DNA from: Escherichia coli
GTDB taxonomy: Bacteria; Pseudomonadota; Gammaproteobacteria; Enterobacterales; Enterobacteriaceae
NCBI RefSeq assembly: GCF_041886205.1
Contig: NZ_CP169029.1
DNA length: 64,000 bases
Strand: one strand, 5' to 3'
Position numbers and translations under genes: made by a program. Below, in pieces: positions 18,194-33,124 of this stretch (positions are counted from its first letter, which is position 1; each line of letters begins with the position of its first letter). Under the pieces are notes generated by a model. The model was not told the origin of the DNA and searched no databases. It was given only the letters and a program-made list of their open reading frames with translations.

Positions 18194-18412
18194 TTGATGG
18201 AATTCACTTGCCCAACCTGCCATAAACCTCTCGAACACCACGGCGAGACGGCTCACTGCGTAACTTGCGATAAAGATTTCACCATCCAGGCACGTTGCCC
18301 TGACTGCCATCAGCCGCTACAGGTGTTAAAGGCTTGTGGCGCTGTGGACTATTTCTGTCAACATGGTCACGGATTAATTTCTAAAAAACGCGTTGAGTTT
18401 ATTATCGCTTAA
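18194..18412 (+). CDS. yfgJ: zinc-ribbon-like small protein YfgJ
   Basis: 72 aa with two CxxC pairs (CPTCHK...CVTCDK, CPDCHQ...CQHGH). Confidence 0.75.
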   Translation: MMEFTCPTCHKPLEHHGETAHCVTCDKDFTIQARCPDCHQPLQVLKACGAVDYFCQHGHGLISKKRVEFIIA

Positions 18413-18428
18413 TATCATTCGAATGTAT

Positions 18429-18467
18429 GGTTTTATCATTTGTATTTAATATACAAATGATAAAACC
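18429..18467. repeat. perfect 17-bp inverted repeat (ggttttatcatttgtat / atacaaatgataaaacc), hairpin at the core/accessory junction
   Basis: Read directly; 5-nt spacer; followed by T-rich sequence; lies in the AT-rich 190-bp leader of the SinH-like gene. Confidence 0.5.
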
Positions 18468-18621
18468 TTCTCTTATTAGTTAAATCATTAATACATGTGA
18501 GTAAAATTATTTAGATATATTTTTAGGAATATATTTAGTTTTTCTGACGTGCCTTCCTGAATGTTCTGGCATAGAATATTAGAGCTTATTCATCAAATTA
18601 TCATTGCCACAGGGAAAGTGC

Positions 18622-20796
18622 ATGCTGCGATGGAGTCGCTTTATTATGTTACTATTCATCTCTGCTGCAACTCCTGCGGCAGAGATAAATAGTAAGCAAA
18701 ACGAATCGTTACCTGATTTAGGCAGCCAGGCGGCTCAACAAGTAGAACAAACGGATAAGGGTAAATCGTTAAAAGAGCGTGGAGCCGATTACGTCATTGA
18801 TTCTGCTACGCAAGGGTTTGAAAACCTAACCCCCGAGGCGCTGGAATCTCAGGCCAGAAGCTATCTGCAAAGTCAAATCACCTCAACCGCACAATCTTAT
18901 ATTGAAGACACACTCTCTCCCTACGGTAAGGTCCGTTCGAATCTCTCTATTGGTCAGGGTGGCGATCTGGATGGTAGCTCCATCGATTATTTTGTTCCCT
19001 GGTATGATAATCAAACGACCGTTTATTTCAGTCAATTTTCTGCGCAACGAAAAGAGGATCGTACGATCGGGAATATCGGAATTGGAGTAAGACATAATTT
19101 CGATGAATGGCTTTTGGGTGGGAATATATTTTACGATTATGATTTCACCCGTGGGCATCGTCGTTTAGGTTTAGGGACAGAAGCCTGGACCAATTATTTA
19201 AAATTTTCTGGCAACTATTATCATCCGCTCTCTGACTGGAAAAACTCTGAGGATTTCGACTTTTATGAAGAGCGTCCGGCGCGCGGTTGGGATATTCGTG
19301 CTGAAGCCTGGTTACCTTCTTATCCACAACTGGGGGGCAAGATTGTCTTCGAGCAATATTACGGTGATGAAGTCGCCCTTTTTGGTACGGATAATTTAGA
19401 GAAAGATCCCTATGCGGTGACGCTAGGACTAAATTATCAACCGGTACCGTTACTGACAGTTGGAACGGATTATAAAGCGGGGACCGGAGATAACAGCGAT
19501 GTCAGCATTAATGCCACTCTTAATTATCAGTTCGGCGTTCCGCTAAAAGATCAACTCGACAGCGATAAAGTAAAAGCAGTCCACTCGTTGATGGGTAGCC
19601 GACAGGACTTTGTCGAGCGTAATAACTTTATCGTCCTGGAATATAAAGAGAAAGACCCTCTGGATGTGACGTTGTGGCTGAAAGCGGATGCGACCAACGA
19701 GCATCCAGAGTGCGTCATTAAGGACACTCCTGAAGCGGCGGTCGGTCTGGAAAAATGTAAGTGGACCATTAACGCACTGATCAATCACCACTACAAAATT
19801 GTCGCTGCGTCATGGCAGGCGAAAAACAATGCCGCCCGCACGCTGGTGATGCCGGTCATCAAAGAAAATACCATCACTGAAGGCAACAACAACCACTGGA
19901 ATCTGATACTGCCAGCCTGGCAGTACAGCTCTGACAAAGCTGAGCAGGAAAAACTCAATACCTGGCGGGTACGGCTGGCGCTGGAAGATGAAAAAGGTAA
20001 TCGGCAAAACTCCGGCCTGGTGGAAATCACTGTTCAGCAGGACCGTAAAATAGAGCTTATCGTCAATAACATTGCCGATGCGCCTGCCGAGAATAACCAC
20101 AGCCATGAAGCCAGCGCTCAGGCGGATGGCGTTGATGGTGTAGTCATGGACCTCGAGGTGACGGACAGTTTTGGCGATAACACGGACCGCAACGGTGATG
20201 CTCTGCCAGAAGATAATCTTGCACCGCAGCTCTACGACGCTCAGGACAAAAAAGTCACGCTAACCAATAAACCCTGCTCGACCGACAACCCCTGCGTGTT
20301 TATTGCCAAACAAGATAAAGAAAAGGGAACGGTAACCCTCTCCAGTACATTGCCAGGCGTTTTCCGCTGGAAAGCGAAAGCGGCTCCCTACGATGACAGT
20401 AACTATGTGGATGTCACGTTTATTGGATCTGATATCGGCGGGCTTAATGCTTTCATTTACCGGCTTGGGGTAGCGAAGCCAGTCAATTTGATCGGCAATG
20501 ATAAAGACCCCCTGCCGCTGGGCAACACGTACCGATTTGTGTTGTGGCGTGATGCCAACAAAGACGGCGTTTTTCAGCAGTCGGAAAAACTAACCGATGA
20601 AGAGATGACTCAGTACGACTACAAGTGGGAATTTACCGGCAAGAGCATCAATGGCGAAGTAGGTGCGCAGGCGAACACATCCAATGCAGACATTGTAATA
20701 CCGGCGACCAACCGTGAAGCGGCGCAATCCTATGGTGCAAAAGTGGAAGATGGCTTGCAGGGATACGGTTTACGCGTGCTGTACACCAAAAAATAA
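18622..20796 (+). CDS. sinH: intimin/invasin-family inverse autotransporter adhesin (SinH-like)
   Basis: 724 aa from the ATG at 18622 (ORF-track start 18604 is an alternative upstream start); signal peptide MLRWSRFIMLLFISAATPAA; N-terminal beta-barrel-type region with alternating aromatic motifs (WTNYLKFSGNYYHPL, TLGLNYQPVP), then C-terminal passenger; position and architecture as recalled for Salmonella sinH. Confidence 0.75.
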   Translation: MLRWSRFIMLLFISAATPAAEINSKQNESLPDLGSQAAQQVEQTDKGKSLKERGADYVIDSATQGFENLTPEALESQARSYLQSQITSTAQSYIEDTLSPYGKVRSNLSIGQGGDLDGSSIDYFVPWYDNQTTVYFSQFSAQRKEDRTIGNIGIGVRHNFDEWLLGGNIFYDYDFTRGHRRLGLGTEAWTNYLKFSGNYYHPLSDWKNSEDFDFYEERPARGWDIRAEAWLPSYPQLGGKIVFEQYYGDEVALFGTDNLEKDPYAVTLGLNYQPVPLLTVGTDYKAGTGDNSDVSINATLNYQFGVPLKDQLDSDKVKAVHSLMGSRQDFVERNNFIVLEYKEKDPLDVTLWLKADATNEHPECVIKDTPEAAVGLEKCKWTINALINHHYKIVAASWQAKNNAARTLVMPVIKENTITEGNNNHWNLILPAWQYSSDKAEQEKLNTWRVRLALEDEKGNRQNSGLVEITVQQDRKIELIVNNIADAPAENNHSHEASAQADGVDGVVMDLEVTDSFGDNTDRNGDALPEDNLAPQLYDAQDKKVTLTNKPCSTDNPCVFIAKQDKEKGTVTLSSTLPGVFRWKAKAAPYDDSNYVDVTFIGSDIGGLNAFIYRLGVAKPVNLIGNDKDPLPLGNTYRFVLWRDANKDGVFQQSEKLTDEEMTQYDYKWEFTGKSINGEVGAQANTSNADIVIPATNREAAQSYGAKVEDGLQGYGLRVLYTKK

Positions 20797-20850
20797 GATT
20801 GGCGTAAGGCCAGTCGGCCAGTCGCTGAAGATTCATTAAGGAGAGACTCA

Positions 20851-21828
20851 ATGAAGCAGGACAAAAGACGCGGTCTGACCCGGATCGCATTGGCGCTGGC
20901 ACTGGCGGGTTACTGCGTGACGCCCCTTGCGCTGGCGGAAGACAGCGCGTGGATCGAGAGCGGCGAGACCAATATTTTCCAGGGGACTATTCCGTGGCTC
21001 TATTCGGAAGGAGGAAATGCTACGACAGATGCCGACCATGTAACGTTGACTTCTGATCTAAAAGGCGCTCGCCCGCAAGGCAGTGAAACGGACAAGCGTC
21101 TTTACTCGGGTGATAAACTAACCGTAAGCTGGGAGATTGGCGATACTGAAGGCGACGTCGATCTTGGTACGGCGGGTAAAGATGCAAAAACCATCGATAC
21201 CATCCGCTGGATGAGCTACAAGGACGCCCAGGGGGGCGATCCAAAAGAGCTGGCAACGAAGGTGACCACTTACACCCTTACCGATGCCGACCGTGGACGC
21301 TATATCGGTATTGAAATTACCCCAACCACCCAGACGGGTACGCCATACGTTGGGACTGCGCTGCATCTTTATGATGTTTCAAATGCTAACGGCGGGGGAA
21401 GCGATGAAGATAACGTTGATCCAGGACCGGTAGTTAACCAGAACCTGAAAGTCGCCATCTTTGTTAAAGACACTACGACCAACCTTATTAACGGCAATAC
21501 GCCAATCCAGTTGGGCAAAACGTACGTCGCCAAACTGTACTCGGATGAGAACAAAAACGGTCGGTATGACGCGGGTACTGACGTTGATGTTACCACCAAT
21601 TATGACTACCGTTGGGTACTCTCTGGCAGCAGCCAACAGCTCAGCACCTCGGGTGGTATCGTTAACTCAAGCTTCGATAATCAAAACCTGGTCATCCCTG
21701 CGACCAACGACGAAGCCAGAACCAACCTTAACGGCCCTGCTCGTGATGGCAAAGAGGCTCTTGCGATCCCGACCAACGGCGATGGGGTTCAGGGTTACAA
21801 ACTGCAAATTATCTACAAACACAAATAA
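20851..21828 (+). CDS. sinI: secreted protein sharing a C-terminal module with the SinH-like passenger (SinI-like)
   Basis: 325 aa; signal peptide with AEDSAW cleavage region; C-terminal ~110 aa align to the SinH-like C-terminus (VIPATN-EA, DG-QGY-L-Y-K, YDY-W--G-S). Confidence 0.65.
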   Translation: MKQDKRRGLTRIALALALAGYCVTPLALAEDSAWIESGETNIFQGTIPWLYSEGGNATTDADHVTLTSDLKGARPQGSETDKRLYSGDKLTVSWEIGDTEGDVDLGTAGKDAKTIDTIRWMSYKDAQGGDPKELATKVTTYTLTDADRGRYIGIEITPTTQTGTPYVGTALHLYDVSNANGGGSDEDNVDPGPVVNQNLKVAIFVKDTTTNLINGNTPIQLGKTYVAKLYSDENKNGRYDAGTDVDVTTNYDYRWVLSGSSQQLSTSGGIVNSSFDNQNLVIPATNDEARTNLNGPARDGKEALAIPTNGDGVQGYKLQIIYKHK

Positions 21829-21839
21829 CACTTGCTCAA

Positions 21840-21870
21840 CAGCATTCCCGCGTGGGAATGCTGTTTCCGC
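21840..21870 (+). terminator. possible rho-independent terminator after the SinI-like gene
   Basis: Hairpin cagcattccc gcgt gggaatgctg followed by TTTCCGCATATTTT. Confidence 0.5.
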
Positions 21871-21903
21871 ATATTTTGCTTAATTCAGGATTAAGCAAAA
21901 TAT
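21871..21903. promoter_or_regulatory. perfect 14-bp-arm palindrome (atattttgcttaat-tcagg-attaagcaaaatat) 45 bp upstream of the giant ORF; candidate operator
   Basis: Read directly in sequence; function unknown. Confidence 0.35.
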
Positions 21904-21948
21904 GTTGATGCGGTAACCGTTCGTTAAATAACTGGTGGAGTTCTTTTC

Positions 21949-24900
21949 ATGTCCCAGCCCCTGAAACCCGGCACTTTTTATGTTCTGCTTGTATTGCTGC
22001 TAACCGCAATGCTGCCGGGATGGTCATGGGCGGGCTCGTCATGGCAAGACTCATCCGATACGGCGGGAGAATTTAACGGTACCGTCCCCAATGCCGACAG
22101 CGCCAGTATGCCGGTTTATCAGGGCAGTATTTGGCTTGATCCTGCAAAGACCCATGATGTTTCGTTTTCCGCTAAACCCAATGAATTTAGCGTTAATCTG
22201 GATGTGTCGAAGCTGATTGTGACGAACCCGCAGGACCTGGAAGGGGATGTGTTTACCAACCCCCGTTGGGAAAACCAAACGCCGCCAGCGGTCTCTTTAG
22301 TCTGGGCGGATGCGGCGACACCGGAAACCCCACTTAATCCTCAGCCAGTGGCTGGGCGTTCCTTTTGTGCGCAAGGGCTTGCTGGGCGTTCGCTGGTTGT
22401 CTGGCCGCAGCCAGACCCACAGCAGACCATGCCGCAACTTTATCTACGCACCTCGACAGGTTATCCCTATGAAAGTCTTCTGACGCTTGTCGATAAAAAA
22501 GTGACGTTAAATATTGCACCGGCCCAGGGCGACTTAATTTCTGTCAGTGCGGCCGGTTATGACGATACCGTGGGCGGGGCGAAAACTACCGTTGGCGGCA
22601 ATATCACGTTGACCGTTACCACCAAAGACTGCAGCGGCAACGTTGCAGGAAATATTCCTTTTATTATCAAACGCAAAGATGCTGAAAACCGACAGGGTGA
22701 GGTCAACAATGCTTCGCCGGTTGTTCTGGACAAAACTGAACTGACCACTATCGCGACCGAATATCACGGCACCACGGATGCGAACGGCGTTGCGACGATC
22801 ACGGTCACGCAACCCAACGGCCCTGGTGTAAAAACGCCGCTGGTAGCCAGTCTTTCAGGTATTGGTCAAACCAGTGAAACGGCAGTGATCTTTACCGTCC
22901 TTACCAGCCCGGATGTCCCTCAGGCCACGATGTGGGGCCATATGCCCGATACGCTAAAGGCCCATGATTATACGTTCAGTCGGCCAAAATTGGCGGCAGA
23001 AGTCGATAACGAAAATGGTACCGTTAACGATCACAATGAAACCTGGTCTACCTTCACCTGGAGCGGGGCGGATAAACATTGCGACATTTTGCCCGGTATG
23101 CGCCAGTTTGGCGCGTTGGCAACGGTGGTGCCCACGACAGTTCAGGATCTCGTTGGTTGGCCGATACAGGGTAACTACTACTGGTCATCACTGGCGGGGA
23201 TGACCGGACAGCACCATGCGGCGGATGTTTCCAACCGTAGCGAAGCGCAAAAACCGGACGATACGACGTTTATTGTCAGTTGTGTCGATAAAGAAGCTCC
23301 TGACGTTGAACCGAAACTGGTGCTAACACCGGGAAGCTATGATTCGACGTTAAAGGCGATGAAAGTAAAGGTGGGGGAAGAAGCGTCTCTGCGTGTAACC
23401 ATCACCGATAATAAAAACAATAATCAACCGCTGGCGTATTACTACTTTTCGTTACATCTGGATGACGGCATCAACCGTAAAAATCCATCGGATGCGGCAT
23501 GGGAAGCGCATCCGGTGCAGATAGCGGGTGGCAGCAATGTCCATCAGGTTGACGCGCATACCTATGAAGGCATTACGGATGTAAATGGTCAGGCATCACT
23601 GACGCTAACGCAACCGGGCGGCGCGGGCGTGAAAACACACATTACTGCGAAAATGCGCAGCGACTTCACCACGTCGGATGAGAAAGACGTGATTTTTACA
23701 GTCATTACCAGCCCCGATACTGACAAAGCCCGGATGTGGGGGCATATGCAGGGTATTATTGATTCTAATAATATCTTTAAACGTCCACGGCTGGCAGATG
23801 AAACCGACCATGAACTCGGTTCAGTGCGGGAGAACAACGAAGACTGGGCGCTGTTCGACCAAAATAGCAGCATGCAGGCTGAATGCGGTGTAGGTCATAT
23901 TCCGAGCCAGAATCAATTACAGGGTCTGTTCACGGCGCATCCTGGCAATGCGATTGGCACCGAATATGGCTGGCCGACGGCGCAAAAAGATTACCTTAGT
24001 GCGGTACAACAAGAGCCACACTCCTCCGTGAACCTGGGCACAGGTAACATCGACACCTATTCAGGCTTTAAGCAGAACTATCTCTCCTGTTCCGGTAATG
24101 AGATGGTTGCTCAGATTACCGCAACGACCGATCATGACGTTTCCGTGGGCAGCAGGGCGCAGGCTAAAGTTGGAGAAACCGTCACCATGACGGTGCATAC
24201 CTTCAATGCACTGAATAATGCGCCCGTGCCGTTTACCGCCTTCAGCATCACAAAGGAGATGGGTAAAAACCGTCAGGGGCAGACTACCGGATATACCGAT
24301 CCGACGAGTGGCGCAATTGAGATGAATGGCACGCTCTACGGAACATCCCAGGCCTCGGTGGTTTATTCCGGGACTACGGATGCACAGGGCTACGCAACGG
24401 TGGAGATTGAACAACCCCAGGGCGTGGGCTTAATTACGCCGCTAAATATTGCGCCTGTGAACTCCTATATTCCCAATACAGTAAATTACAACGTGATTTT
24501 CACCACGCCTACCAGCCCGGATGTGGTGGCGGCGCAGATGTGGGGGCATATGGATGAGACTATTACAGTCGATTCTTTAACCTTCACCCGGCCTAAACTG
24601 GCAGCGGAAGTTTCCAGCCCGGATGCGACATTGACAGAAAATAATGAAGTCTGGGCACGTGTGAGTCAGGCGAATACGTCCAGTATAAGTAAAGGTGGCT
24701 GTGGAGCGAATATGCTGCCGCGTCGATCCCAGCTTAGCGCGCTCTATGAGGCTAATAACGGTAATGCTGTACAAACAGTACACGGCTGGCCAACCCTGCG
24801 TGAGCCGTACTGGAGTAGTTCCCCAGCGGATAAAGTTCCTCATTTTTACACCATTGCACTCAATGATGGCGCACAGGCTATTGGCGGTAGCAACGCGGTT

Positions 24901-27900
24901 TATGTCAGCTGCCTGACGACGGCAAATAGTCCTGCTAACGCTATTACCTTAGAGGTGGTGGATCAGGCGCAATGGAACGCGACGGCGAAAGCGGCGAAGC
25001 TGAAAAAAGGCGAAACACTCCAGGTTAAGGTAACGGTGAAGGATGCTCAGGGCAATGCACTGTCGGATATGCCATTCACCCTGAAACGTGGCGATGGTTA
25101 TACCCGCTCAAATGAAAAACATATTGCTGGCAGCGGGGATGCGCTGGTTGCGCCAGTCATCGTCAACGGAGGCCTGGCGGATGAAACTTCACTGAATGAT
25201 ACCGCGACAGCATACGTTGCCATGACCGGCAGCGACGGCACTAAAATACTTACCATAACCCGCCCGGAGACGCATGGCACCAAAACGGCGCTGATCGCTG
25301 CGCTGTATTCTGATGCAACGAAAAACGCCAGCCTCGACACCATTTTTACCGTTGCGACCAGCCCGGACAGCGATAAGGCGAAAATGTGGGGGCACATGGC
25401 GGAAACGGTGACGGCTACTGACGGCACGGTATTTAAACGCCCGCGCTTACTGAAAGAGTGGTCAACTCAGTCCTCTCTTACTGAAGATAATGAGGTCTGG
25501 GGGTTGTATAACATCAGCGATGCAAAATCTACCAGCGATGGCTGTGGCGCTAATTATGTTCCTGCGCAGGTTGGGCTGGAGTCATTGTTTGACAATAACC
25601 GCAGCAACGCGATGAAAACCGTACAAGGTTGGCCGGTAAATACTCATTATCTTTCAAGCACCTCGAGTACGGACAGTTTATCGCAGCATAATTATAAAGC
25701 CGTCGATCTGGGCAATGGAACCAGTACCTCAATATCCGCTTCCGAGAGGAAGTTGTTAACCTGCCAGACGACCGAGGTGTTACAGGCAAGCCAGATTCTG
25801 CTGGACGCAGCGGATCCAACCACCTTCGACAGCACAAATAATGTTGTCAAAGTTAAAAAAGGCGAAGCGGCAGTGGTGCGTGTAACCACGAAGGATTCGC
25901 AGGGGAATCCTGTAGGAAATACCGCATTTACCCTCAAACGAAACTACAGCGTGAACAGGGCTAATGCGTCGAATACCACGTCGATTGCTTCATTGGTGGT
26001 AACGGATGCATGGGGAAATACTCAGGACAGTTTTCTTTCCACGTCCCTGGTCATTTATGGCGTAACGGGGGCCGATGGCACCACCACCTTTACACTGAAA
26101 CAAGACCAGTCTACCGGCTTAAAAACGGAACTCACGGCAGCGCTGGACTCCTCCAGCAGCATTACATCGTCGCTTCCCGTCGTCTTTACGGTGCTTACCA
26201 GCCCGGATTCGCCAAAAGCCAAATTCTGGGGGCATATGGCTGAAACGGCGACAGGCGATGACGGTCTCATTTATAAAAGGCCATTGCTGAGAGACGAGAT
26301 TAGCGCCTCTAGCGGTATCAGCACCCTGACAGAAGAGGGGGAAAGCTGGTCTATGTTCCGGGCGGACAATGCTAATGATACTTCGATAAGTGGTTGTGGC
26401 GCGGAGTATGTTCCAACTGACAGTGAACTTAAGGCCATTTATGCGCACCAGGGGGGGAGCGCATTGCATGGTGCTATCGGCTGGCCCGTTTCGAAGCCCT
26501 ATATCTCGAATACCGTCGCAGATGCATTCACTCAACTCTTTAAGTTTGATGTCGTTTCGTTGAACACGGGAGATGAAACACAGATTTCATCAACTAGTGT
26601 AGGGCCTCTTAGCTGCCGTACCACGCCTGTCGCCGTTGCCAGTCAGATTATTGTTGAGGCGAACGATGCGGCGCAATTTGTCAAAGTTGACGATACCTTG
26701 AGTGCGCTGAAAGTGAAAAAAGGTGAAGACGCGGTGATTCGCGTGGTGACCAAAGATGCGCAGGGGAATACCGTGCCCAATGTTCCCTTTATTCTCAAGC
26801 GAGAGGGTTCAACGAATCGTCAAAATGTCACGATGATAAATAAGTCGATTACGGTGATTAACGCGGCAGGGACTTCTACGAATGTGCTTAGTTCGTCAAC
26901 ACTGCTTTATGGGGTAACGGGCGCGGACGGGACTACCACGTTTACGGTAAAACAAGATGATTCTATGGGTCTGATGACCAATATGTACGCTCAGTTGTAT
27001 CAGTCGACGATAGAATCCAACAAATTACCGGTGATGTTTACCGTTATAACCAGCCCGGATACGCCTCTGGCAAACTACTGGGGGCATATGTCTGAAACCT
27101 TCACGACAAGGTCGGGGGTTGTCTTCAAGCGGCCAATGCTTAGTGCCGAGCATCCAGCGGGGCAGTCAACCGTGGATAATAATGAATCCTGGCTTTCCTT
27201 AAATACAGCAGCAAAAAATGATGTCAGCAAATCAGGCTGTGACGAACCTTATCAACCGTTATTAAGCGAACTTCAGGATTTGTACAGTGAACATCCTAAT
27301 GGTGCGATAGGAACCGATTTAGGCCTTCCGTTGACGAAAACCTGGTGGGCTTACGATAAAGTGGCCTATGCGAACGCCTGGTACGATCAGTCTGTTAATT
27401 TGTCGAATGGGTCAAGCGCCAGGGCGTCGTCAACCACCGTTGCGTTTGTGCCCTGTCTGGTAAACCCTCATGCAGTGGCTGCTTCTATTGAGATAACCTC
27501 CACGGCACTGGATGCGGAGAAAACGGCCAGTAACGATGGTCGCCCCAGCGCAACCGCACCGAAAGGTACGGCGATCCGGATGACGGTGATTGTGCGGGAT
27601 AGCGCAGGAAATCCATTGCCCGGCGCCAACTTTAACCTCGTACGCGGGACGGCATTGGATCGTGCAAAATACAGTGTCGATAGTTCGGCTGATGATCTGA
27701 CCCTCGTGCCTGTCACACCTGCTGGCGTAAATATGACTCTCACGAGTAATACATCAAAAGCACTGTTGACGACAGGCAGTGATGGTAAAGTGACCTTTGA
27801 TGTGACGCAAAACGGGACTTATGGGCTCGCAACCCCGCTCACTGCAACATTGCTACGCGACACTTCAATAAGCGCCACGATGGATGTCATTTTCACGGTG

Positions 27901-30000
27901 ATAACCAGTCCCGACTCACCGAAAGCAAAATACTGGGGTCATATGGCCGACACGTTTACCAGCAGTGCGGGGGTGACCTTTAAACGACCACTACTGGCAG
28001 CGGAAGCGACCTCCGGGTCCTCGGTTGGCAGTAATAATGAGTCGTGGTCATACCTTAATGTTAACGACAGAGCTACGTCGGATTGCTCACTGGAGTATCA
28101 GCCGCGTCTCAATGAGTTACAGGGGTTATATAACGATCATCCTGGCGGGGCCATACAGACGGATCTGGGGTTACCTGTAGCTGCCGGAAGTGGAAACTGG
28201 TGGGCTTATGAAATGAGTATACCTAACCCCAGCGGGTCGGTGTGGTTTTACGGCATCATTAATTTGAAAACGGGACAATCGTCGACCACGTCGAGTGGAT
28301 TCGCTTTAATGCTCTGCCTGACGCAGCCGCATACGGTACCGGCAAGCCTTACACTGTCATCAACCGCCTACGATGAAGGCAGAACCGCCAGCAATGGTGG
28401 CACACCTACGTCATCTGTGAAAAAAGGTGAGACGCTTCCCTTAGTGGTGACGATCAAAGATGCCAATGGTAACCCCGTTGGCGGCGAAGGCGTTACGCTC
28501 AAGCGCGCGCAGGCGAAAAGCCGTTCAGGTATCTCTGTCTCCTCCACTACCGTTGATGATCTTATTTTAAATGAAGTCACACCGGAATCAGCCAGCTTTT
28601 CCTTCGCCGCGGATTTGGCATCATGGAGCGGCATCACCGGCAGTGACGGCACTGTAACGTTCAATATTACACAAAAAAATACCATCGGCCTGGTAACGCC
28701 GTTTACAGCCTCATTGGGGCGAAATCCGCAGGTCACCGCCAACCAGGACCTGATGTTCACGGTGGTAACCAGCCCGGATTCGCCGAAGGCAAACTACTGG
28801 GGGCATATGCCAGCAACCTTGACGGCAGTGAATGGTGCGGTATTTGAACGCCCGAAATTGTGGAGTGAACTGCCATCGACCTCCGGCGTCGGCAAGATCA
28901 ATAACAATAATGAGGACTGGCCGTACTATTCACCGACAAAAAAATCTGATGAGAGTGTGACCCCTTGCGAAGTGGCAAGACAGCCTCTGCTTAGTGATTT
29001 AAATTCGCTGTCTGCGCGTTATCCGGATAACACCTTCGCCGCTGAAACGGGCTGGTCTGTGTATTACACCTGGTGGGCAGAGGATAAATCCGCCGCGGGT
29101 AAAGATCAGTCGGTGGATTTGAGGAATGGCACGCTGTATACGAATGCAACAGGAGCATTTCTGCCATGCCTGGTTAATGCGCGTTCAACCGTTTCCAGCG
29201 TCACGCTCACCTCAACGGCGTTTGACGCTACCACTCAGGCGGCGAAAGTGAAAAAAGGCGAAGCCATGCCCGTTACCGTAACGGTGAAAGACAGCGCCGG
29301 GAAAACGGTGGCGAATGTGGCTTTTACCCTGAAACGCGGTGATGCTGCGCCAAGAAACCCAGGTATGGCCTTGTACGGCGATGTGGATGCGATGGATGAC
29401 ATGACCGTTCAGCCGACATCGGGAGCGGCGGTGACGTGGCCTGACAGTGGCAATGCTTTGCAGGGAACCACCGGTTCTGACGGTACGGCGACGTTTATGG
29501 TTAAACAGAATAATACGCCGGGTTATAAAACGCCGTTGACGGTCACGTTGGACAATAACACCAGCATCACTGCGACAATGGACGCTATTTTCACCGTAGT
29601 GACCAGCCCGAATGTCTCAAGCGCCTATTACTGGGGGCACATGGCAGATACGACCACGGTGAATGGTAAAACATTGCATCGCCCGTTGTTGGCATCGGAG
29701 CTACCTGCGAATGCTTCTTCCCCAGCCACGCCTGACGTAAACAATGAAGCCTGGGCTATGGGGCATATGGTGGATTCAAGGAATTGGGATATCGAGGCGC
29801 AGTGTGGCAGCTTGACCAACGCGCCAAACGATGACGACTTAATGGGTCTGTATACTAACTTTAGTTCGCTGGGTTGGCCTGCATCCCCGAGTTTTCCTTA
29901 CTTATCTTCTCAGAGATGCGGCGTGTTTGAAAACAGTGGACAACAGGACTGCGCTATTGCGCCAGGCAGCACAAAAGGTTTTGTGACTTGTACCCAATAA
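21949..30000 (+). CDS. giant secreted repetitive protein (2683 aa) with about 9 tandem ~280-aa modules containing Ig-like (BIG-type) segments; RatA/RatB/ShdA-family-like
   Basis: Signal peptide at the N-terminus; motif FTV-TSPD...WGHM recurs 9 times with 800-866-bp period (DNA positions about 22895, 23698, 24500, 25341, 26181, 27031, 27888, 28754, 29590); each module also has VKKGE...V.VTVKDA.GN...FTLKR and C(G)..Y.P...L..LY motifs. Confidence 0.8.
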
Positions 30001-30045
30001 GATCAATGTGGGGGGCCGCCTACGGCGGCCATACACAATGGACTT

Positions 30046-31526
<1,481 letters not shown>

Positions 31527-31608
31527 TTATTCAGTCGATAGTAACCCTCCCTCCGGGGATAGCAAGCATTTTTTGCAAAAAGGGGTAGATGCAATCGGTT
31601 ACGCTCTG

Positions 31609-31614
31609 TATAAT
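31609..31614 (+). promoter_or_regulatory. candidate -10 hexamer (TATAAT) of the guaBA promoter
   Basis: Perfect TATAAT 44 bp upstream of the guaB ATG in the xseA-guaB divergent region; -35 not confidently assigned. Confidence 0.4.
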
Positions 31615-31657
31615 GCCGCGGCAATATTTATTAACCACTCTGGTCGAGATATTGCCC

Positions 31658-33124
31658 ATGCTACGTATCGCTAAAGAAGCTCTGACGTTTGACGACGTTC
31701 TCCTCGTTCCTGCTCATTCTACCGTTCTGCCGAATACTGCTGACCTCAGCACCCAGCTGACGAAAACTATTCGTCTGAATATCCCTATGCTTTCCGCAGC
31801 AATGGATACCGTAACGGAAGCGCGCCTGGCTATTGCTCTGGCTCAGGAAGGCGGTATCGGCTTTATCCACAAAAACATGTCCATTGAACGCCAGGCAGAA
31901 GAAGTTCGCCGTGTGAAAAAACACGAATCTGGTGTGGTGACTGATCCGCAGACTGTTCTGCCAACCACGACGCTGCGCGAAGTGAAAGAACTGACCGAGC
32001 GTAACGGTTTTGCGGGCTATCCGGTCGTTACCGAAGAAAACGAACTGGTGGGTATTATCACCGGTCGTGACGTGCGTTTTGTTACCGACCTGAATCAGCC
32101 GGTTAGCGTTTACATGACGCCGAAAGAGCGTCTGGTCACCGTGCGTGAAGGCGAAGCCCGTGAAGTGGTGCTGGCAAAAATGCACGAAAAACGCGTTGAA
32201 AAAGCGCTGGTGGTTGATGACGAATTCCACCTGATCGGCATGATCACCGTGAAAGATTTCCAGAAAGCGGAACGTAAACCGAACGCCTGTAAAGACGAGC
32301 AAGGCCGTCTGCGGGTTGGTGCTGCAGTTGGCGCAGGTGCGGGTAACGAAGAGCGTGTTGATGCGCTGGTTGCCGCTGGCGTTGACGTTCTGCTGATCGA
32401 CTCCTCCCACGGTCACTCAGAAGGTGTTCTGCAGCGTATCCGTGAAACCCGTGCTAAATACCCGAATCTGCAAATTATTGGCGGCAACGTGGCAACAGCT
32501 GCAGGTGCTCGCGCGCTGGCAGAAGCTGGTTGCAGTGCGGTTAAAGTCGGTATCGGCCCAGGCTCTATCTGTACGACTCGTATCGTGACTGGCGTCGGTG
32601 TTCCGCAGATCACCGCCGTTGCTGATGCAGTAGAAGCCCTGGAAGGCACCGGTATTCCGGTTATCGCTGACGGCGGTATCCGTTTCTCAGGCGATATCGC
32701 CAAAGCTATCGCCGCTGGCGCAAGCGCGGTAATGGTGGGTTCCATGCTGGCAGGTACTGAAGAATCTCCGGGGGAAATCGAACTCTACCAGGGCCGTTCT
32801 TACAAATCTTACCGTGGGATGGGCTCTCTGGGCGCGATGTCCAAAGGTTCCTCTGACCGTTACTTCCAGAGCGACAACGCTGCCGACAAACTGGTGCCGG
32901 AAGGTATCGAAGGTCGCGTAGCCTATAAAGGTCGCCTGAAAGAGATCATTCACCAGCAGATGGGCGGCCTGCGCTCCTGTATGGGTCTGACCGGCTGTGG
33001 TACTATCGACGAACTGCGTACTAAAGCGGAGTTTGTACGTATCAGCGGTGCGGGCATTCAGGAAAGCCACGTTCACGACGTGACCATTACTAAAGAGTCC
33101 CCGAACTACCGTCTGGGCTCCTGA
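31658..33124 (+). CDS. guaB: IMP dehydrogenase
   Basis: 488 aa from [24 protein letters not shown] pair and catalytic Cys loop ([11 protein letters not shown]). The ORF-track start at 31589 is an upstream extension. Confidence 0.95.

Follow-up and report, generated by a model that had tools for sequence, protein, structure and literature searches.

How could a protein of 280 kDa without a membrane barrel of its own reach the cell surface, and what would be the targets of nine differing adhesion domains? These questions are raised by a stretch of 64,000 nucleotides of the Escherichia coli chromosome (contig NZ_CP169029.1 of RefSeq assembly GCF_041886205.1), hereafter called the window. At positions 21949-30000, on the plus strand, the window carries one uninterrupted open reading frame (ORF) with an ATG start, which specifies 2683 amino acids (aa) plus a stop codon and which RefSeq labels 'adhesion domain-containing protein'. 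We found that this giant ORF encodes a protein that Pfam, NCBIfam, the PDB and the literature already record, namely the RatA-like protein of E. coli. It has a Sec leader and nine immunoglobulin (Ig)/adhesion pairs, and it lacks a barrel. We propose that the RatA-like protein, the product of the third gene of the ila cluster, is Sec-exported, displayed at the surface with the aid of SinH and SinI, and probably acts as a multivalent adhesin. The matter is of some weight, as the cluster has been linked to the virulence of E. coli in the urinary tract and to gut colonisation by Salmonella. An N-terminal motif that is common to RatA-like and SinI-like proteins is the sole new lead.

Domain composition of the RatA-like protein

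The identity of the protein is given by the NCBIfam equivalog NF011844 ('RatA-like protein'), matched with 5240.2 bits against a cut-off of 3870 and covered end to end (aa 5-2683 on positions 3-2683 of a 2683-position profile). Pfam scans, which covered aa 1-1199 and aa 1484-2683, revealed a strict alternation of two domains that were formerly named DUF823/DUF824: BIg21 (PF05688, 'Bacterial Immunoglobulin-like 21') and InvE_AD (PF05689, 'Adhesion domain', formerly DUF824). The nine BIg21 domains have E-values of 6e-19 to 2e-27 and eight of the nine InvE_AD copies E-values of 1e-20 to 3e-34; the remaining copy, the adhesion domain of module 4 (AD4), straddles both scans and gave partial matches (8.7e-17 and 1.4e-6).

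An earlier inspection of the letters alone, hereafter the sequence-only reading, had recognised Ig-like segments in each module (VKKGE..VTVKD..GN..FTLKR, then GTDG..T..V.Q). Indeed, they occur in every module and lie inside the BIg21 matches, the VKKGE..FTLKR..GTDG segment being the BIg21 domain itself. Big_1 was matched only at E > 0.09. The adhesion part, InvE_AD (TSPD..WGHM..RP.L..E..NNE.W..C..P..L..GWP..C), had been declared unassignable, and this was mistaken: Pfam has it as a curated family, and the equivalog NF011844 takes in the protein as a whole. The suspicion that it forms a separate binding domain between Ig segments was borne out. Using a three-domain Ig-AD-Ig construct as the query, aligned in register, we found that the WGHM domain, together with the preceding Ig domain, has three-dimensional similarity to the solved structure of InvE from Yersinia (5N40), the WGHM domain having the fold of the adhesion domain at the InvE C-terminus. 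Weaker matches were the C-terminal domain of Legionella Lcl and FGE/SUMF-type domains (SUMF2, OvoA), and these do not tell which of the three domains is aligned. We take SUMF2 and OvoA to be FGE-type domains that SCOP presumably groups in the C-type-lectin-like fold together with the tip domains of invasin and intimin. In view of these weak matches, the earlier guess of a lectin-like domain was a good one; the WGHM adhesion domain is likely, though not proven, to be C-type-lectin-like.

The signature F-[TM]-[TV]-x-[TA]-S-P-[DN], followed 6 residues on by W-G-H-M, occurs exactly nine times in the 2683 aa, and regular expressions for its two halves, F[TM][TV]x[TA]SP[DN] and WGHM, returned nine matches each. 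Successive WGHM motifs are spaced by 268, 268, 282, 280, 284, 285, 288 and 278 aa, that is 804-864 nucleotides (nt), so that the estimate of about nine tandem modules with a period of 800-866 bp was accurate. The FTV strand closes the Ig-like domain as its last strand, and TSPD..WGHM opens the following domain; thus, the signature spans a domain boundary. According to the module alignment, each adhesion domain has two conserved cysteines about 70 residues apart. The last one, AD9 (29602-29997), has four cysteines and ends in ...GFVTCTQ, and its tail, C..N..C...GF(A/V)xC(x)Q/E, recurs at the C-termini of several full-length family members, which makes AD9 a distinct tip variant. The features of the protein, all on the plus strand, are as follows (HMM, hidden Markov model; pLDDT, predicted local distance difference test score).

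21949-22032, +: Sec-type signal peptide, aa 1-28 (read from the translation; no lipobox cysteine)
22033-22098, +: mature N-terminal motif, aa 29-50, common to SinI-like proteins (reciprocal HMM searches; low pLDDT)
22033-22527, +: N-terminal beta-rich head domain, about aa 29-193 (about 165 aa), family-specific (no Pfam family)
22462-23265, +: module 1, BIg21 aa 172-318 and InvE_AD aa 319-439 (Pfam; module alignment)
23266-24069, +: module 2, BIg21 aa 440-586 and InvE_AD aa 587-707 (Pfam; module alignment)
24070-24915, +: module 3, BIg21 aa 708-854 and InvE_AD aa 855-989 (Pfam; PDB sequence match 5n40_A, E 1e-26)
24916-25755, +: module 4, BIg21 aa 990-1136 and InvE_AD aa 1137-1269
25756-26607, +: module 5, BIg21 aa 1270-1416 and InvE_AD aa 1417-1553
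26608-27462, +: module 6, BIg21 aa 1554-1700 and InvE_AD aa 1701-1838 (Pfam)
27463-28326, +: module 7, BIg21 aa 1839-1985 and InvE_AD aa 1986-2126 (Pfam)
28327-29160, +: module 8, BIg21 aa 2127-2273 and InvE_AD aa 2274-2404 (Pfam)
29161-29997, +: module 9, terminal, BIg21 aa 2405-2551 and tip InvE_AD variant aa 2552-2683 (Pfam)

All homologues begin with an equivalent hydrophobic leader. No match to IAT_beta, the barrel of inverse autotransporters, was obtained in the Pfam scans, and no two-partner secretion (TPS) domain was found in the protein. Lacking that barrel, the protein does not qualify as an inverse autotransporter (type Ve), nor, lacking a TPS domain, as a TpsA exoprotein.

Integrity and age of the gene

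Giant genes rich in repeats are often mis-assembled, and in some strains the locus carries an internal stop. One could thus suspect the ORF to be an artefact of assembly, or a pseudogene in decay, with a repeat number that cannot be trusted, a suspicion to which we give next to no credence. Tandem Repeats Finder detected no array in the gene, indicating that the copies are deeply diverged at the DNA level. A DNA repeat search returned one nine-copy family with a 61-nt core at 61-74% identity, spaced as the protein signature is, and this core is the only similarity that can be recognised among the modules at this level; as proteins, the nine modules are 27-43% identical in pairwise comparisons. 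As there is no long identical repeat, there is nothing to collapse in an assembly. Moreover, three independent complete E. coli genomes carry the 8052-nt gene at 100% identity and a fourth carries it to within one base, and the other allele lineages (8043-8082 nt) differ in length by a few codons. Compared with L002, a related locus that carries a common B2-type allele, the window protein is of equal length and 81% identical; the least conserved domains are AD4 (62%) and AD9 (59%, the lowest). Between the two genes, the ratio of nonsynonymous to synonymous substitution rates (dN/dS) is 0.16 with a dS of 0.69, which marks ratA as a coding gene under constraint whose alleles are very old. Altogether, the identical independent genomes, the absence of a collapsible repeat and the low dN/dS led us to reject both the artefact and the pseudogene explanations; the sequence-only reading had rightly taken the modules to be diverged, the ORF to be real and its assembly to be sound.

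The ila locus and its conservation

In the window, the order of genes is hisS-yfgM-bamB-der-(zinc ribbon)-sinH-sinI-ratA-xseA(-)-guaBA. The two genes that precede ratA are the following.

18622-20796, +: sinH (iatB), intimin-like inverse autotransporter, 724 aa (NCBIfam NF033423, 1467 bits against a cut-off of 999)
20851-21828, +: sinI, barrel-less SinI-family autotransporter-associated protein, 325 aa (NCBIfam NF040711, 343 bits against a cut-off of 165)

The window sinH is intact, its translation being free of stops, and it is this separate upstream gene that holds the IAT_beta barrel. SinI matches ZirU_fam weakly (E 5e-5; 23.5 bits, below the cut-off of 100), and its last 115 aa or so are 34% identical to the C-terminus of SinH. 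According to PMC12928451, sinH, sinI and ratA are the 'ila' cluster of extraintestinal E. coli, both uropathogenic (UPEC) and avian pathogenic (APEC), located between der and xseA. The cluster is the counterpart of the Salmonella CS54 island (PMC12928451, PMC4943183, PMC10048834). PMC12928451 also states, citing Shea et al. 2022, that ila-cluster deletions attenuate UPEC in murine urinary-tract infection. For Salmonella, PMC10048834 refers to Kingsley et al. 2003 for a ratB mutant that is unable to colonise the mouse caecum. SinH/IatB itself has been located at the cell surface, where it promotes the formation of biofilm; its expression is regulated by LeuO (PMC6714894), and it is a vaccine candidate (PMC9937491).

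The order IAT_beta protein (about 730 aa), SinI-like protein (about 325 aa), Rat-like protein is found in the window and in the related loci L002, L005-L008 and L010-L014. In L003 and L004, a SinI-like gene is followed by a Rat-like gene, after which the contig ends. The cassette lies in a Salmonella-like der/xseA context in L008 and at a different chromosomal site in L007, beside a polyA-polymerase-family (PolyA_pol/HD) gene and a CYTH/CHAD gene. L010 (4740-18355) has two complete cassettes in tandem: the first encodes an IAT_beta protein, a SinI-like protein and a two-module Rat-like protein of 784 aa; the second, after a zinc-ribbon gene, encodes an IAT_beta protein, a SinI-like protein and a Rat-like protein of 2693 aa. 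This conserved order is new support for the linkage of the RatA-like protein to SinH and SinI.

Among 5426 complete E. coli genomes searched by megablast, ratA was found in 938: 10 at 95% identity or more, 549 at 80-90% and 379 at 60-80%. The window ratA is therefore of a rare allele lineage, the common alleles being about 83% and 76% identical to it. Full sinH and sinI were present in 945 of these genomes, against 936 counted for ratA in that comparison. The sinH query matched 1747 genomes, about 800 of them by sinH only; the one such genome that we inspected, L014 (NZ_AP022044.1), carries the whole cassette as a more divergent allele, and the Rat-like adhesion-domain gene of this allele, 8082 nt long, was missed by the ratA query.

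Nucleotide identities between the window (18197-33124) and L002 were as follows.

hisS, yfgM and bamB, 99%; der, 96.5%; guaB, 96%; guaA, 98%
Zinc-ribbon gene, 85%; intergenic region, 77%; sinH, 86%; sinI, 88%; ratA, 82%; xseA, 88%

Thus, divergence peaks on the island and spills into the core flanks, a pattern that looks like that of old allelic lineages or imported segments.

Some side observations concern the neighbourhood. L009 (1-10232) has two adjacent Rat-like genes, one encoding at least 3008 aa and the other 743 aa. The zinc-ribbon ORF (71 aa, 18197-18412) always accompanies the cassette and stands between both cassettes in L010; its match to the 'dual CXXC motif small (seleno)protein' family is sub-threshold (26 bits, cut-off 40). 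Between this ORF and sinH, at 18429-18467, there is an AT-rich, perfect-looking hairpin of 17 bp followed by a T-rich tail, which is probably a terminator separating the der operon from the island; scans for promoters and terminators returned nothing above shuffled expectation.

A motif common to RatA-like and SinI-like proteins

Right after the signal peptide, RatA-like and SinI-like proteins share a motif of about 20 residues, W-Q/x...T-G-x-I-x-G-T-x-P. In the window it lies at aa 29-50 of RatA (22033-22098) and aa 30-50 of SinI (20938-21000), and it is also present in L003, L005, L007, L008 and L010. Three examples are given.

Rat-like protein: LKSATWQELRTSTDAINGTVP
SinI-like protein of the same locus as the Rat-like example: LKSGQWQSVTDTTGTIQGTVP
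Window SinI: EDSAWIESGETNIFQGTIP

N-terminal HMMs were searched against 2054 six-frame ORFs; a word-indexed protein search with aa 1-314, which returned fragments of at most 536 aa, served as the source of N-terminal homologues. With an HMM built from Rat-like N-termini alone, SinI-like ORFs were the next-best matches after the Rat proteins (E 6e-8, 3e-6 and 2e-4). Conversely, an HMM built from SinI-like N-termini alone found, beyond the SinI set, only Rat-like proteins, that of the window at E 3.5e-4. Besides the conserved gene order, this motif is a second and unforeseen point in favour of a role of SinH and SinI in the display of the RatA-like protein.

The low pLDDT of aa 29-50 in the head-domain model would fit an extended partner-binding peptide. 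Tentatively, the shared motif may serve for targeting or docking, as a signal not recognised before by which cargo without a barrel is committed to an inverse autotransporter of the SinH type. If so, it would define a 'type Ve two-partner' route for the export or anchoring of very large adhesins. The motif offers a cheap handle on the long-standing hypothesis that inverse autotransporters serve separate substrates.

Proposed function and alternatives

We can propose the following course for the RatA-like protein. It would first be exported by the Sec pathway and acquire disulfides in the periplasm. It would then be carried to, or held at, the cell surface with the aid of the co-encoded inverse autotransporter SinH and its partner SinI, the mature N-terminal motif being a candidate recognition or docking signal for this step. 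At the surface, it would serve as a long multivalent adhesin or colonisation factor, and its nine non-identical adhesion domains could offer different binding surfaces. The two-partner-like model for ZirT/ZirS/ZirU, as well as the idea that Rat-like proteins are substrates of an inverse autotransporter, is the hypothesis of Heinz et al. 2016 (PMC4943183).

Several points weigh against this proposal. We know of no ligand for any InvE_AD domain, and in the literature we found no experiment on the export, surface exposure, SinH/SinI dependence, localisation or ligand of RatA. In strain LHM10-1 (L001, 8674-10848), sinH is annotated with an internal stop beside a ratA that is 100% identical to that of the window; in FDAARGOS_1290 (L012, 3963-12005), it is ratA that has the internal stop, beside intact sinH and sinI. 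Thus, sinH and ratA can decay independently, in both directions. The motif of the window SinI is diverged and was missed by the Rat-derived HMM, and a profile comparison between the whole RatA head domain and SinI was not significant. Moreover, IatB/SinH is functional on its own, as it forms biofilm without the downstream genes (PMC6714894).

The intact genes beside decayed partners and the autonomy of SinH would be expected if the RatA-like protein reached its destination without SinH and SinI, through another release route or by staying in the envelope, the clustering then reflecting co-regulation or the common descent of Ig-domain genes. On general grounds, too, a folded, disulfide-bonded chain of 280 kDa would be a demanding cargo for the 12-stranded barrel of an inverse autotransporter. 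Such independence nonetheless sits poorly with the three-gene order, which persists in relatives of as little as about 46% identity, in a cassette located elsewhere on the chromosome and in one that is duplicated, with the near-identical presence of the cassette genes across E. coli genomes, and with the N-terminal motif common to SinI. We regard it as unlikely, yet deserving serious attention, and retain SinH/SinI-aided display.

Whatever the route, adhesion to host cells might not be the main role of the Ig/adhesion array, which could instead serve as a scaffold for a matrix or biofilm, in self-association, or in immune evasion in the manner of the antibody binder InvD of Yersinia. This appears distinctly improbable, given that the domain family was named and solved as the adhesion domain of an invasin-family adhesin and that colonisation phenotypes are reported for ratB and the ila cluster (PMC10048834, PMC12928451). 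Adhesion thus remains our preferred function for the array.

Comparison with known systems

The closest known system is the E. coli RatA-like protein of NF011844 / PRK15316, encoded in the ila cluster of UPEC and APEC, with the same profile length (2683) and the same der-xseA locus; we noted no architectural difference from it, the window protein standing apart as a rare allele lineage. Salmonella RatA (NF011843, 1860 aa) and RatB (NF011842, 2435 aa) of the CS54 island have the same head domain and the same alternating BIg21/InvE_AD, and are likewise encoded beside sinH and sinI (PMC4943183, PMC10048834). They differ in module numbers, the island has two rat genes plus shdA, and the window protein falls below both equivalog cut-offs (2058 and 2260 bits against 3700 and 4079).

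Salmonella ZirT/ZirS/ZirU resembles sinH-sinI-ratA in that an inverse-autotransporter gene is followed by genes for barrel-less Ig-domain proteins, and it is the published model for the handling of SinI and Rat proteins by SinH (PMC4943183, PMC6714894). The likeness, known here from gene order, is one of analogy, and ZirS and ZirU are small whereas RatA is of about 280 kDa.

Compared with intimin and invasin (type Ve), RatA has neither the IAT_beta barrel nor LysM; its Ig domains are of the BIg21 and not of the Big_1 type, and its tip-type domains lie inside the chain as repeats. InvE of Yersinia pseudotuberculosis (5N40), according to its Pfam/PDB naming as an invasin, is an inverse autotransporter with a beta-barrel of its own and only one adhesion domain, placed at the end, whereas RatA lacks the barrel and repeats the Ig/adhesion pair nine times, so that the chain must continue out of each adhesion domain. 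Altogether, the RatA-like protein would work like the passenger of an invasin-family adhesin, from which it differs in two respects: its tip domain comes in nine copies, and a separate gene encodes the membrane anchor.

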